Source: a virus (Duplodnaviria > Heunggongvirae > Uroviricota > Caudoviricetes). From it: a DNA stretch of 31,165 nt. The DNA lies in the IMG/VR virus record IMGVR_UViG_2541047931_000001; one strand, given 5' to 3'. The notes below the pieces were generated by a model. It was not told the origin of the DNA and did no database searches. It worked only from the letters and a program-made list of their open reading frames with translations. Position numbers and translations under genes: made by a program. Positions 2,795 through 31,165 of this stretch are shown piece by piece (within the stretch, counting starts at the first letter, position 1; each line of letters opens with the position of its first letter).

Positions 2795-3877
2795 TTAGAA
2801 CTGGTAAACCAGACCTACAGCAACGATGTCATCAGTATCAATACCAGCTGTTTTGGTAAACTTACTATCGTCAATTAAGTTGATTTTGTAATCAACAAAA
2901 GTGGACATGTTTTTATTAAAGTAGTAAGTAGCACCGACATCGACATACTTGACTAAGTCTCGGTCACCATGAACACCAAGGTCTTTACCTTTTGACTGAA
3001 GGTAAGCAACAGATGGGCGCAGACCGAAGTCAAACTGATATTGTGCTACTGCTTCAAAGTTTTGTGCTTTGTTTGCAATATGGTTATTACCAAAAACGGT
3101 CATATTCTGAGTTTCAGAATATGTGGTAGCCAGATAGATATTGTTCGCATCATATTTCAGGCCTGCAGCCCATACTTCCGCATTTTTGCCGGAGGCATTG
3201 AATTTGCTCTTACCATAGGCGACCTGACCGTCAGTGCGATCTGATTTAGCATAGGTTGCACCCACGCCGAATCCTTCATACTCATAAGTAGTGGAGAAAC
3301 CGAAACCATCACCATTGGCTTCAGTTACGTCAGTGCGGTCATTTTTACCCTGATACTGAGCAGCAAAGTTCAGGCCATCGACCAGACCAAAGAAGTCGTT
3401 GTTACGATAAGTTGCAACACCAGTAGTGCGACCAGTCATGAACACATCTGTTTGGGTCCAGGTATCACCACCGAATTCTGGCAGGACGTCAGTCCACGCA
3501 CCGATGTCGTATGCTACACCGTAGTTACGGCCGTAATCGATTGAGCCGTAATCACCAAATTTCAGGCCTGCAAATGCAAGACGGGTTTTGTCTTTGGAAG
3601 AACCTTGAGATTCAGCGCGGTTGCCTTTGAATTCATATTCCCACTGACCGAAACCAGTCAGTTGATCGTTGATTTGGGTTTCACCTTTGAAGCCAAGACG
3701 GGCATAAGTAGTATCACCATCATCTGCATCATTAGAGGAGAAGTAGTGCTTAGCATTAACTTTCCCGTACAGATCCAGCTTGTTACTGTCTTTATTATAA
3801 ATTTCAGCTGCCTGAGCAGACATCGCCATCAGTACTGATGCAGCTACAGCAGAAATTGCCACTGTTAATTTTTTCAT
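2795..3877 (-). CDS. nmpC: Outer-membrane general porin, OmpC/OmpF family, NmpC/Lc-type phage moron, 360 aa, apparently intact
   Basis: Signal peptide [23 protein letters not shown], then [16 protein letters not shown] and a C-terminal ...VGLVYQF ending in Phe, as in classical porins. Convergent with Q and located between Q and the lysis genes, as in DLP12/PA-2. Confidence 0.85.
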
Positions 3878-16635: not shown

Positions 16636-17027
16636 AACATACTGAACTCCGTGCAGCCGTACTGGATGCACTGGAGAAGCATGACACCGGGGCGACGCTT
16701 TTTGATGGTCGCCCCGCTGTTTTTGATGAGGAAGATTTTCCGGCAATTGCCGTTTATCTCACCGGCGCTGAATACACGGGCGAAGAGCTGGACAGCGATA
16801 CCTGGCAGGCGGAGCTGCATATTGAAGTTTTCCTGCCTGCTCAGGTGCCGGATTCAGAGCTGGATTCGTGGATGGAGTCCCGGATTTATCCGGTGATGAG
16901 CGATATCCCGGCACTGTCAGATTTGATCACCAGTATGGTGGCCAGTGGCTATGACTACCGGCGCGACGATGATGCGGGCCTGTGGAGTTCAGCCGATCTG
17001 ACTTATGTCATTACCTATGAAATGTGA
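16632..17027 (+). CDS. U: Tail terminator protein U, 131 aa
   Basis: Size and position as lambda gpU; ATGA overlap with Z. Confidence 0.9.
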
Positions 17028-17034
17028 GGACGAT

Positions 17035-17814
17035 ATGCCAACACCAAATCCTCTGGCACCGGTGAAAGGGGCCGGGACCACACTGTGGGTTTATAACGGG
17101 AGCGGCGACCCTTATGCAAACCCGCTTTCAGACAATGACTGGTCGCGTCTGGCAAAGGTTAAAGACCTGACGCCCGGCGAACTGACCGCTGAGTCCTATG
17201 ACGACAGTTATCTCGATGATGAAGATGCGGACTGGACCGCGACCGGACAGGGGCAGAAATCTGCCGGAGATACCAGCTTCACGCTGGCGTGGATGCCCGG
17301 AGAGCAGGGGCAGCAGGCGCTGCTGGCGTGGATGCCCGGAGAGCAGGGGCAGCAGGCGCTGCTGGCGTGGTTTAATGAAGGTGATACCCGTGCCTATAAA
17401 ATCCGCTTCCCGAACGGCACGGTCGATGTGTTCCGCGGCTGGGTCAGCAGTATCGGTAAGGCGGTGACGGCGAAGGACGTGATCACCCGCACGGTGAAAG
17501 TCACCAACGTAGGACGTCCGTCGATGGCAGAAGATCGCAGCACGGTAACAGCGGCAACCGGTATGACCGTGACGCCAGCCAGCGCTTCCGTAGTGAAAGG
17601 GAAGAGCACCACGCTGACCGTGGCATTCCAGCCGGAAGGCGCAACCGACAAGAGCTTCCGTGCGGTGTCAGCGGATAAAACAAAAGCCACCGTGTCGGTC
17701 AGTGGTATGACCATCACCGTGAATGGCGTTGCTGCAGGTAAGGTCAACATTCCGGTCGTATCCGGTAATGGTGAGTTTGCTGCGGTTGCAGAAATCACCG
17801 TCACCGCCAGTTAA
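17035..17814 (+). CDS. V: Major tail protein V, 259 aa (lambda 246 aa plus a 13-aa in-frame duplication)
   Basis: [33 protein letters not shown]... and the C-terminal Ig-like domain match lambda gpV. Contains a duplicated [13 protein letters not shown] segment. Confidence 0.9.
17284..17361 (+). repeat. Perfect 39-bp direct tandem duplication (2 copies) inside V
   Basis: ctggcgtggatgcccggagagcaggggcagcaggcgctg occurs twice in tandem (17284-17322 and 17323-17361). Confidence 0.85.
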
Positions 17815-27872: not shown

Positions 27873-30221
27873 ATGGCAGCAGTAAAAATCTCAGGTGTGC
27901 TGAAAGATGGTGCGGGAAAACCAATACAGAACTGCACTATTCAACTGAAGGCAAAGCGTAACAGCACCACGGTACTGGTGAACACGGTGGCCTCTGAAAA
28001 TCCGGATGAAGCCGGGCGTTACAGCATGGATGTCGAGTATGGCCAGTACAGCGTCACCCTGCTGGTTGAAGGTTTTCCGCCTTCACATGCCGGAACCATT
28101 ACCGTCTATGAAGGTTCCAGACCTGGTACGCTGAATGATTTTCTCGGTGCCATGACGGAAGATGATGTCATGCCGGAGGCATTGCGTCGTTTTGAGGCAA
28201 TGGTGGAAGAAGCAGCACGCAACGCTGAAGCCGCCTCTCAGAGCGCAGCGGCAGCAAAGAAATCAGAAACAGCAGCGGCATCATCGAAGAACGCGGCGAA
28301 AACCTCAGAAACGAATGCAGCTAACAGCGCACAGGCGGCAGCGGCCTCGCAGACTGCATCGGCAAACTCCGCGACAGCAGCTAAAAAATCAGAAAACAAC
28401 GCGAAAAATAGCGAGACAGCAGCAAAGACGAGCGAAACCAACGCAAAGTCCAGCCAGGCGGCAGCGAAAACAAGCGAAACGAATGCCAAAACCAGTGAAA
28501 CTGCGGCGAAAAGCAGTCAGGCTGCAGCAGCCGAAAGCGAGAGTGCGGCAGCCGGTTCTGCGACTTCAGCAGCTGGATCAGCAACTGCTGCAGCTAACAG
28601 CCAGAAAGCAGCGAAGACGAGCGAAACTAACGCAAAGTCCAGCCAGACGGCAGCGAAGACCAGCGAAACGAATGCCAAAGCCAGCGAAACTGCGGCGAAA
28701 AACAGTCAGGATGCAGCGGCCCAAAGCGAGAGTGCCGCAGCTGGTTCTGCAAGTGCGGCGGCTTCTTCTGCCACTGCATCAGCCAACAGTCAAAAAGCTG
28801 CAAAAACCAGTGAAACCAACGCAAAGGCGAGCGAGACTGCGGCGGCTAACTCGGCGAAAGCATCCGCTGCAAGCCAGATGGCTGCAAAAGCAAGTGAAGA
28901 CGCAGCCAGAGAGTATGCAAGCCAGGCAGCAGAGCCGTATAAATATGTCTTACAGCCACTGCCTGATGTGTGGATACCGTTTAACGATTCACTGGATATG
29001 CTTGCTGGCTTTTCGCCTGGTTATAAGCAAATAACTGTAGGTGATGATGTTATTAAAATGCCATCCGATAAGGTTGTTAGCTTCAAACGCGCATCAGGTG
29101 CAACATACATTAATAAATCAGGTGTATTAACCGTTGCTGAAGTTGACGAACCGCGATTTGAACGAGAAGGTTTGCTGATTGAAGGACAGAGAACAAACTA
29201 TTTCAGAAATTCAAATACACCAGAAGCATGGAATAACACGGGTAGTGTGTCTGTTGAGTCGTTCGACAGTGATAAGGGGTTTAACTATGGAAGGATAACT
29301 GTTATTAATGAAAATCCGACAGCACAAGGATATCAGGCAATTGCTGTAAACACGAATGATGCTTACACCTGCCCGGCAGGTTCTTATACGACGATATCGT
29401 GTCTGACGAAAAGTGATAATTCCCGGTGTCGTGCAAGGTTCGGAAAAATGTCTGATAATGGTGCGTTTGTTTTTCATTCAGATGCAGCTCTGGATCCTGT
29501 TACGGGAAATGTTGTTCATGGAAATAATGTGACGGTGACGGCAGAAAGAGTCGGTGAATGGTGGTTGTTTACCGCCACTCTTTTTGCAGATGCGGAAATG
29601 ATAATCAGCTCAAGATTTGAAATCCTGGCGATGCCTGGAATCAGTATTATCCCCAATGGCTCTACGTTAGATATTGCGATGCCTCAGGCGGAGATTGGGT
29701 CGTACAGGACGTCATTTATCATTACTGAAGGGGCTCCTGGCACTCGCTCCAGCGACATGGTGACAATACCTGTAAGAAACAATATTCACCGATTACCATT
29801 CAGTGCTCTTGTTGAAGTTAATAAAAACTGGGATATCCCTCCCAGCAAATCACCATTAATCTTTAATGTTAAAGATTATCAGGAAAATGGTCTGTTCACG
29901 CATGGATTCCGTGGTAATAATTTCTCTGATGCCGGTTCTCCTTTTATTTCTATGGGAGGGTGTAATAAATATGTGGCAACAACCCAGAGGAAAATCATTT
30001 CAGGCTTCCGTTGTGGCGCTGATGGAGATGTTCAGGCCGTATGTAATGGTGAATTATCTGTTGCGGCAAAAACAACATGGACTTCAATTGTTCCACGGGC
30101 AGTATTGCGAATTGGAGGGCAGGGCACTAATGGGGAGTATCATCTTTTTGGTCATATCCGTAATCTGCGTATCTGGCATAAAGAATTAACTGATGCGCAA
30201 ATGGGGGAGAGTATTAAATGA
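27873..30221 (+). CDS. stf: Side tail fibre, lambda Stf-like N-terminus, Ala/Ser/Thr-rich fibre repeats, distinct C-terminal domain, about 782 aa
   Basis: MAAVKISGVLKDGAGKPIQNCTIQLKAKRNSTTVLVNTVASENPDEAGRYSMDVEYGQYSV... resembles the lambda Stf N-terminus. GGAG lies 5 nt upstream of the ATG at 27873; the ORF-track start at 27867 is GTG. The C-terminal ~400 aa is non-lambda and ends ...GEYHLFGHIRNLRIWHKELTDAQMGESIK. Confidence 0.8.
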   Translation: MAAVKISGVLKDGAGKPIQNCTIQLKAKRNSTTVLVNTVASENPDEAGRYSMDVEYGQYSVTLLVEGFPPSHAGTITVYEGSRPGTLNDFLGAMTEDDVMPEALRRFEAMVEEAARNAEAASQSAAAAKKSETAAASSKNAAKTSETNAANSAQAAAASQTASANSATAAKKSENNAKNSETAAKTSETNAKSSQAAAKTSETNAKTSETAAKSSQAAAAESESAAAGSATSAAGSATAAANSQKAAKTSETNAKSSQTAAKTSETNAKASETAAKNSQDAAAQSESAAAGSASAAASSATASANSQKAAKTSETNAKASETAAANSAKASAASQMAAKASEDAAREYASQAAEPYKYVLQPLPDVWIPFNDSLDMLAGFSPGYKQITVGDDVIKMPSDKVVSFKRASGATYINKSGVLTVAEVDEPRFEREGLLIEGQRTNYFRNSNTPEAWNNTGSVSVESFDSDKGFNYGRITVINENPTAQGYQAIAVNTNDAYTCPAGSYTTISCLTKSDNSRCRARFGKMSDNGAFVFHSDAALDPVTGNVVHGNNVTVTAERVGEWWLFTATLFADAEMIISSRFEILAMPGISIIPNGSTLDIAMPQAEIGSYRTSFIITEGAPGTRSSDMVTIPVRNNIHRLPFSALVEVNKNWDIPPSKSPLIFNVKDYQENGLFTHGFRGNNFSDAGSPFISMGGCNKYVATTQRKIISGFRCGADGDVQAVCNGELSVAAKTTWTSIVPRAVLRIGGQGTNGEYHLFGHIRNLRIWHKELTDAQMGESIK
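28418..28870 (+). repeat. About 2.4 tandem copies of a 189-bp (63-aa) repeat within stf
   Basis: aagacgagcgaaac(c/t)aacgcaaagtccagccag recurs with a 189-bp period (near 28424, 28613, and diverged at 28802); encodes the ...AAKTSETNAK(S/A)S... fibre repeats. Confidence 0.7.
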
Positions 30222-30499
30222 AAGATTTAACACTCAAATTTGCAGACAGGGCCGACTTTTCGGCCTTTATGGAGAGTATTGGCTATTATGATGACGAGTC
30301 GATGCAGGATGATATTCTTATTGACGTGATAGGTAACGTGTACAAAGAAACCGGAGAACTGACTGAAGATGGCGAACCGGTATGTGTTAAGGAAGACGGA
30401 TATTTTGTAAACGTGCGCATCATTAATGATGCAAAAAAATCGTCAATATTCGATAAATACGCGGTTGTTGTTGAGCATCAACTTCGTGGCTGGATGTGA
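30218..30499 (+). CDS. Hypothetical acidic protein, 93 aa, translationally coupled to stf
   Basis: ATGA overlap with the stf stop; no recognisable motif. Confidence 0.4.
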   Translation: MKDLTLKFADRADFSAFMESIGYYDDESMQDDILIDVIGNVYKETGELTEDGEPVCVKEDGYFVNVRIINDAKKSSIFDKYAVVVEHQLRGWM

Positions 30500-30508
30500 G
30501 GGAGACAA

Positions 30509-30940
30509 ATGGCTACATCGACAGTAATTCCAGGAGATATCACCACGCTAAAGGGAGATGTCAGTAAAACTAAGGAAGATATTTCCTCAATTAACGGAAA
30601 AGTATCAACGCTTCAGACTGATATGACCAGTGCAAAGCAGGATATCAGCACCAGATACACAAAAACTGAAGTTGATAATAAGCTGAAAAACAAACTGGAA
30701 GTGAACGATCTGGAAAGCGGTCGTTATGGTGGAGATTTTTACCCGTTGACTGGCCGTGAAGCGTTTTATTTGTGGGGATTGGGCACGACTACAGCGGCGG
30801 CAAACCTTTATCTTAATCCTGACCCCGCAATTTCGTCTGTGCTGCGGTCAACATCGTCTATCCGCTATAAACATTCAGTAGAGACAATAGATTCAGAGCA
30901 CGCTGATCTCATTTTCAGGATGCGCCCTGTGTGGTACAGG
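30509..30940 (+). pseudogene. Fibre/spike-like ORF truncated by the IS2 insertion
   Basis: GAGGGAG SD; a coiled-coil-like N-terminus, then SSIRYKHSVETIDSEHADLIFRMRPVWYR, which resembles the start of a peptidase-S74-type intramolecular chaperone domain. The frame continues into IS2 terminal sequence at 30942 and stops shortly after. Confidence 0.5.
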
Positions 30941-30941
30941 T

Positions 30942-31165
30942 TGGATTTGCCCCTATATTTCCAGACATCTGTTATCACTTAACCCATTACAAGCCCGCTG
31001 CCGCAGATATTCCCGTGGCGAGCGATAACCCAGCGCACTATGCGGATGCCATTCGTTATAATGCTCGAACGCCTCTGCAAGGTTCTTTGCTGCCGTTAAC
31101 CCGTCTGGTTTGGGCATGATACTGATGTAGTCACGCTTTATCGTTTTCACGAAGCTCTCTGCTAT
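30942..31165 (-). mobile_element. IS2 (IS3 family), right terminal inverted repeat and 3' part, continuing beyond the window
   Basis: TGGATTTGCCCCTATATTTCCAGACATCTGTTATCACTTAACCC is recognised as the IS2 right end in reverse orientation; the transposase C-terminus is encoded on the minus strand. Confidence 0.85.
30953..31165 (-). CDS. insD: IS2 transposase OrfB (InsD), C-terminal part, 5'-truncated by the window edge
   Basis: ...[70 protein letters not shown] is the characteristic IS3-family integrase-core C-terminus. The frame is open to the window end. Confidence 0.85.

Follow-up and report, generated by a model that had tools for sequence, protein, structure and literature searches.

What ends the last gene in this stretch of DNA? 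The window, by which we mean the whole stretch analysed (31,165 nucleotides, IMG/VR record IMGVR_UViG_2541047931_000001), has near its end a chimeric ORF of 157 amino acids at 30509-30982 on the plus strand. The original prediction, made from the letters alone, read this ORF as a fibre- or spike-like gene with the beginning of a peptidase-S74 chaperone domain, truncated and inactivated by the insertion sequence IS2. If this is correct, the ORF records a transposition; if it is not, the same letters may represent a faulty assembly, a rearrangement or simply the natural end of a gene. It is also necessary to ask what kind of protein the uninterrupted gene encodes, since only then can the consequences of the break be judged.

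We are highly confident in the following reading. The side-tail-fibre operon of a lambda-like E. coli prophage contains a gene of 234 codons, and a single IS2 element (IS3 family) has jumped into codon 145, with duplication of the sequence CAGGT. What the original prediction said about the sequence holds, with one correction to the gene's place in the operon, and each check that it proposed supports it. The features on which this reading depends are collected in Table 1.

Table 1. Positions in the window of the interrupted gene, the insertion and the neighbouring fibre genes
Feature	Position	Strand	Details
Side tail fibre (Stf-like), 782 aa	27873..30221	+	Intact, first gene of the cassette; phage_tail_N PF08400, E = 1e-66; NCBIfam NF048003
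93-aa gene, middle of the cassette	30218..30499	+	Intact; phrog_1361, E = 1e-46; start overlaps the fibre stop
Native 5' part of the S74 tail-fibre-domain gene	30509..30941	+	Codons 1-144 plus 1 nt; 433 nt, 99% to ECB_RS02700
CAGGT, left copy of the 5-bp target-site duplication	30937..30941	.	Right copy at L002 11685-11689
IS-encoded tail of the ORF	30942..30982	+	Last 2 bases of junction codon 145, 12 more codons (13 residues), stop from the IS2 terminal repeat
IS2 right end (IRR side)	30942..31165	-	Terminal inverted repeat TGGATTTGCCCCTATATTTCCAGACATCTGTTATCACTTAAC and 3' end of the transposase (orfB, integrase core)

The insertion and its two junctions

The last 224 nt of the window are 100% identical, by nucleotide comparison, to copies labelled 'IS3-like element IS2 family transposase', and among 5,426 complete E. 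coli genomes 4,439 contain matching copies, at a median of 3 sites per genome. Against the first 224 nt of a full-length IS2 copy there are 0 mismatches. The minus-strand translation is the C-terminus of an integrase core (rve_3 in Pfam, E = 1.1e-13). Both the identity of the element and the minus-strand orientation of its transposase were thus correctly anticipated. The first bases of the IS are TGGATTTGCCCC, and in an alignment the terminal sequence given in Table 1 pairs with the opposite end of IS2 as an imperfect inverted repeat. The terminal repeats of IS2 are about 40 bp long and imperfect (TGGATTTGCCCC... and TAGACTGGCCCCC...), and both ends are present in the locus L002, which is described below. 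In its inverted repeats, in the orientation of its transposase and in the length of its duplication the element matches reference IS2 (insC/insD, about 1,331 bp, 5-bp duplication), and nothing about the copy in the window is distinctive.

The breakpoint was located with the uninterrupted gene ECB_RS02700 of E. coli B REL606 as reference (WP_000235987.1, 234 aa, annotated as 'tail fiber domain-containing protein'). Identity to this gene is about 99% from upstream of the start codon through 30941, and from 30942 onwards the two sequences are unrelated. The break that had been placed at 'about 30941' is therefore exactly there.

The far side of the insertion lies beyond the window, and it can be read in L002, a locus taken from the 530-kb scaffold KE702253.1 of GCA_000461115.1. 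The final 10,657 nt of the window match L002 with 0 mismatches, and a run of 805 N in the scaffold (L002 10658-11462) starts exactly at the window end, 31165. It follows that the window is KE702253.1, or a scaffold indistinguishable from it, cut at the gap, and that IS2 is cut short there because a short-read assembly broke off in a multicopy repeat, not at a biological boundary. Past the gap come 222 nt of the opposite IS2 end (219/222, i.e. 3 mismatches to the reference copy), ending in ...GGGGGCCAGTCTA. Directly after this stands CAGGT, followed by CACAATGCGAAAATGAC..., and the gene continues in frame. Read as a whole, the junction has ...TGGTACAGGT immediately before IS2 and CAGGTCACAATGCG immediately after it. 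The other IS2 end and the 5-bp duplication that the original prediction expected in the adjacent sequence are thus both in place, with CAGGT on each side. A second, unrelated IS2 copy has CCTCC on both flanks, i.e. likewise a duplication of 5 bp. When the IS and one CAGGT are removed in silico, a 234-codon ORF is restored, which has 2 substitutions relative to WP_000235987.1. The 3' part of the gene, although separated from its start, is without decay, which indicates that the insertion is recent.

As to the interior of the element, the sequenced ends of 224 and 222 nt leave 881 nt of the 1,327-nt reference copy, and the gap was estimated as 805 N. Of orfB the C-terminus is sequenced (rve_3) and of orfA the N-terminus (HTH_Tnp_1), while the middle 881 nt lie in the scaffold gap. 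The size of this gap agrees with one 1.33-kb IS2, and from it, the interior being unread, we infer a single intact element.

The intact protein and the part removed

The uninterrupted gene is found elsewhere. Its homologs are 221-234 aa long and are conserved for 90 residues past the position of the break, and the cluster to which it belongs has 2,928 members. The intact S74 protein is also found in the temperate phages PhiR49_1, PhiR55_1 and IdasGreatGrand, and PhiR55.1 is described in the literature as a plaque-forming relative of lambda. Hence related genomes, and viable phages among them, carry whole the gene that we rebuilt as 234 aa. The literature found on the PhiR49/PhiR55 phages contains nothing on the S74 gene. 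Three database entries (P0047, P0061 and P0050) join parts of the S74 protein to Lom-like or ParB-like sequence, which suggests that the locus has independently undergone other deletions or rearrangements in further strains.

The resemblance to an S74 domain, first noticed in the truncated ORF, is real. Alone, this ORF scores 12.1 bits with Pfam PF13884, below the gathering score of 22, versus 27.1 bits for an intact homolog, in which residues 116-172 align with profile positions 1-57 of 58. The motif SSIRYK supplies a Ser (Ser116) and a Lys (Lys121) that are invariant in 32 homologs, and the catalytic pair of T5 pb1, Ser1264/Lys1269, has the same S-x4-K spacing (PMC4690869). When the PDB was searched by sequence, it yielded a T5-like L-shaped tail fibre, matched in its chaperone region (8hqz_d, E = 1.6e-7), as well as the ICA domain of MyRF (7dc3). 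In an AlphaFold2 model of an intact representative (P0001), about residues 130-230 have a pLDDT of 85-95 and are predicted to form alpha/beta elements and then a long helix at 198-233. When this model was compared with the PDB by Foldseek, the meaningful matches were exclusively to intramolecular chaperone domains, namely 7dc3 of MyRF (E = 1e-5, prob 1.00), 3gw6 of K1F endosialidase and 3gud of GA-1. Assignment of the intact protein to the S74 intramolecular-chaperone family is thus supported by profile, by the invariant Ser and Lys and by the predicted fold. In the solved structures of its relatives (3GW6, 4UW8, 3GUD and 7DC3) the terminal helix is a trimeric coiled coil, and a terminal helix is present in our model as well.

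The N-terminal half is modelled less firmly. Helices are predicted at 11-47 and 52-62 with moderate confidence, and residues 63-113 have low confidence. The N-terminal part has a weak match to the coiled coil of the P22 gp26 tail needle (E = 0.005), and together with the predicted helices this agrees with the coiled-coil-like N-terminus noted at the outset. Over residues 1-32 the protein matches the fibre PHROGs 4563 and 19752, in each case at the N-terminus.

The intact product can be divided into four regions. A short motif resembling an anchor stands at the N-terminus and is followed by a helical stalk of about residues 11-62, probably a trimeric coiled coil. Residues 66-115, about 50 in number, form a conserved segment, and the C-terminal region, 116-234, is the Peptidase_S74 chaperone domain. 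As in K1F endosialidase and T5 pb1, this last domain would drive trimer folding and would then cleave itself off at the Ser with the help of the Lys five residues on. In T1-like orthologs the identity is 60-68% in segment 66-115 and 56-62% in the chaperone part that is lost here. The segment ahead of the cleavage site is at least as conserved as the chaperone part, which speaks for a function of the mature product itself, beyond the chaperone alone. This product would most likely be a small fibre tip or branch. The position in the fibre operon, the N-terminal PHROG matches and the conserved pre-cleavage segment make the S74 protein a putative component of the virion, as part of the tail fibre. 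It differs from its known chaperone-bearing relatives in the size of the cargo, which is 115 residues here and from several hundred to more than 1,200 in K1F endosialidase (3GW6), T5 pb1 (4UW8), GA-1 (3GUD) and MyRF (7DC3). No enzymatic domain and no large receptor-binding domain can be recognised in it, again in contrast to these relatives. The database labels for the protein include 'tail fiber protein' at one extreme and 'putative lateral tail fiber chaperone' at the other. NCBIfam contains no family for it, nor for the 93-aa and 95-aa proteins encoded beside it, and in the literature we found no experiment on the 234-aa S74 protein.

What, then, does the insertion remove? Residues 1-115, which are the whole of the presumed mature part, are kept, and so are Ser116 and Lys121; residues 116-144 of the ORF (SSIRYKHSVETIDSEHADLIFRMRPVWYR) are the first 29 of the chaperone domain. 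The lost portion is 145-234, i.e. 90 of the domain's about 119 residues, or three quarters of it. In the alignment of 32 homologs 19 of the 33 invariant or nearly invariant columns fall within this portion, and among the conserved positions lost are W154, Y157-G158, I160-E163, E166, P169, G190, E194-V196, Y198 and R200. The AlphaFold2 model places strands 155-159, 172-176 and 191-196 and the terminal helix in the lost part. Their counterparts in T5 pb1 are the central trimeric coiled coil and the beta-hairpin 'tentacles', with which the folding substrate is embraced (PMC4690869). The product of the interrupted gene would consist of residues 1-144 fused to 13 IS-encoded residues, retaining the scissile Ser116 and Lys121, with its beta-hairpin 'tentacle' and C-terminal trimerising helix (145-234) split off by about 1.3 kb of IS. 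In characterised S74 proteins the C-terminal domain acts in cis and is regarded as necessary for the folding of the trimer that precedes it, as Schwarzer in 2007 and Schulz in 2010 reportedly found. By analogy, the truncated protein, being deprived of its chaperone domain, should fail to fold and trimerise, and the allele would be a null; the inactivation claimed in the original prediction is to this extent an inference. Its short coiled coil might nevertheless trimerise unaided.

The fibre cassette and the prophage around it

The window covers the late region of a lambda-like prophage. It contains RusA, KilA-N, DUF968, antiterminator Q, a porin on the opposite strand, lysozyme, Rz and Nu1, and then lambda-sized ORFs for terminase, portal, head, tail, J (1,165 aa) and Lom; the genes from the tape measure through Lom were assigned by Pfam. 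The ORFs in the rest of the morphogenesis region within the window are intact. Rfam and tRNA scans of the window returned no match. The porin gene (2795-3877, minus strand; OmpC-like, Porin_1 505 bits) is situated between the Q gene (2207-2605) and the lysis genes, and has the appearance of an NmpC/Lc-type moron. Within the tail-gene block, an ORF of 269 aa (17005-17814) in the position of the major tail protein contains a perfect 39-bp tandem repeat at 17283-17370 (2.3 copies, 100% matches).

The fibre cassette begins with the 782-aa side tail fibre, which comprises a phage_tail_N anchor, a shaft of Ala/Ser/Thr-rich repeats, a GTA_spike_fiber domain and a C-terminal tip. The shaft (...AAKTSETNAKSSQ...) is encoded at 28410-28844 by a 189-bp tandem repeat with 2.3 copies and 83% matches. 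Strain-to-strain length variation and assembly differences are likely in such a repeat, and it may be the source of the 18-44 mismatches in the metagenome loci L007 and L011. The fibre gene is followed by the 93-aa gene, the S74 gene and, beyond the IS, a gene of 95 aa (97 aa in REL606) that belongs to phrog_1443. The 93-aa and 97-aa proteins have no match in Pfam, and the PHROGs families of both are of function unknown.

These neighbours modify two claims of the original prediction. The gene does lie in the tail-fibre operon, but it is not quite at the distal end, since the 95-97-aa gene follows it. It is also a genuine member of the S74 tail-fibre-domain proteins, and as such a small accessory member of a three-gene cassette and not the main fibre or spike. 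The transposase of IS2 is transcribed against the operon, and for this reason the downstream 95-aa gene is probably affected by polarity.

In REL606 the gene belongs to a DLP12-like prophage and has the same flanks as here, i.e. Stf, the 93-aa gene and the 97-aa gene. The prophage sites are different: appY-ompT in REL606, and here a position beside a Septu-like locus and yagQRST-like genes (xanthine dehydrogenase family). The Septu-like defence pair lies just beyond the prophage end and outside the window (L002 12615-15078, minus strand). PADLOC labels the pair PDC-M01A/B and PtuA: an HNH protein of 296 aa resembles PtuB, and its partner is a PtuA-like ATPase. The latter is in two pieces, an N-terminal one of 83 aa and another of 376 aa, and is therefore probably disrupted.

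The same cassette is found on a different backbone. In KarlJaspers (Bas06, Drexlerviridae) the fibre gene bas06_0037 and the genes bas06_0036 and bas06_0035 stand in the same order as their counterparts here. Comparison of 27873-30982 in the window with L013 2765-5666 of KarlJaspers gave identities of 44% for the distal 531 aa of the fibre, 54% for the 93-aa protein and about 60% for the S74 protein, whose counterpart bas06_0035 was labelled 'putative lateral tail fiber chaperone' by the BASEL authors. KarlJaspers is virulent and T1-like and our prophage is temperate and lambda-like, and the N-terminal anchors of the two fibres are also different. Such a combination of different anchors and backbones is consistent with the distal cassette being exchanged as a module. 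Lateral fibres made of several proteins, and intramolecular chaperone domains, are described in the BASEL papers, which contain no experiment on the KarlJaspers ortholog of the S74 protein. In another strain, E. coli FDAARGOS_1250, an IS1 is inserted in the neighbouring 93-aa gene (L015 1689-2386) of a DLP12-like remnant, in which the S74 gene is intact.

Alternative readings and significance

Could the junction between gene and IS2 be an assembly chimera at a repeat boundary near a contig end? The end of the window does coincide exactly with a scaffold gap, 224 nt inside a multicopy repeat, and the exact junction is absent from all 5,426 complete RefSeq E. coli genomes. Moreover, the assemblies that carry it are all draft or metagenome, and all except KE702253.1 stop in or near the IS. 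However, an exact-protein look-up found the chimeric 157-aa product in 18 contigs, which come from independent assemblies in NCBI and from metagenome assemblies in ENA, and the junction 40-mer is identical in all 10 loci fetched. The far contig, in addition, opens with the opposite IS2 end, then CAGGT and the gene's next base in frame; this is the signature of a true transposition, which misassembly cannot yield. In our opinion a chimera is extremely improbable. The idea that the ORF ends naturally near 30941, with a chance S74 resemblance and IS2 in intergenic DNA, draws on the sub-threshold Pfam score of the truncated ORF. It has next to no chance of being right, and we reject it: the REL606 alignment and the longer homologs extend 90 conserved residues further, the missing 3' part stands directly after the IS in the same scaffold, the conservation among 32 homologs runs past the break, and the intact protein exceeds the Pfam threshold and has a predicted chaperone fold. 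There remains an IS2-mediated rearrangement, be it an adjacent deletion, an inversion or a composite of two IS2 copies with other DNA. IS2 is multicopy, recombination between its copies is common, and the interior of the element is represented by N. On the other hand, the flanks are contiguous in the target gene, the 5-bp duplication is perfect with no base missing, and the estimated gap is close to the length expected for one IS2, so that we regard this as very improbable. Taken together, the junction data exclude a misassembly, a natural end of the ORF and a deletion or rearrangement at the junctions.

A different matter is whether the insertion, real as it is, is neutral or nearly so, either because the product is an accessory or trans-acting chaperone not needed here or because the truncated protein still assembles. 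In favour of this one may note that the presumed mature part and both residues of the Ser/Lys pair are kept, that lambda side fibres are dispensable in the laboratory, that the allele persists in several assemblies, and that the IS1 in the 93-aa gene of another strain suggests an expendable cassette in lysogens. On the side fibres, Ur-lambda against lambda PaPa is a subject of PMC11990801. The name given to the T1-like ortholog by the BASEL authors, a 'chaperone', points the same way. Yet persistence in a lysogen is uninformative about function in the virion, 19 of the 33 best-conserved columns are gone, and the characterised S74 C-terminal domains act in cis and are regarded as necessary for the folding of the preceding trimer (PMC4690869). 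We therefore find neutrality unlikely, though it has a real chance of being correct. More doubtful still, to our mind, is a specific proposal about the intact product: a 'minimal' fibre part, i.e. a 115-residue trimeric stub or tip on the 782-aa fibre, possibly attached via the 93-aa protein, or else a trans-acting S74 chaperone, in a receptor-binding cassette exchanged between lambda-like and T1-like phages.

Returning to the insertion of a single IS2 into a fibre-operon gene, its effect on the phage would probably be mild, because side fibres are dispensable for plaque formation by lambda and the other morphogenesis ORFs are intact. IS2, its 5-bp duplication, the S74 chaperone domain and the 234-aa protein family (an NCBI-named RefSeq protein) are all already known, IS insertions in prophage tail-fibre regions are commonplace, and the present event is ordinary prophage decay. 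For annotation, it means that the 157-aa ORF should be regarded as a pseudogene fragment and that the contig break beside it was caused by the repeat. The prophage carries a recent and clean IS2 disruption of one accessory fibre gene, which has little import beyond annotation. There is a modest side value in the cassette, which is conserved from lambdoid prophages to Drexlerviridae and includes the 234-aa 'mini-fibre' member. If the reading as a minimal fibre or a trans-acting chaperone were true, the IS2 allele would be a natural knockout for a role in host range. Disrupted alleles, such as this one or that with IS1 in the 93-aa gene, lend themselves to simple genetic tests of a structural tip versus a chaperone.
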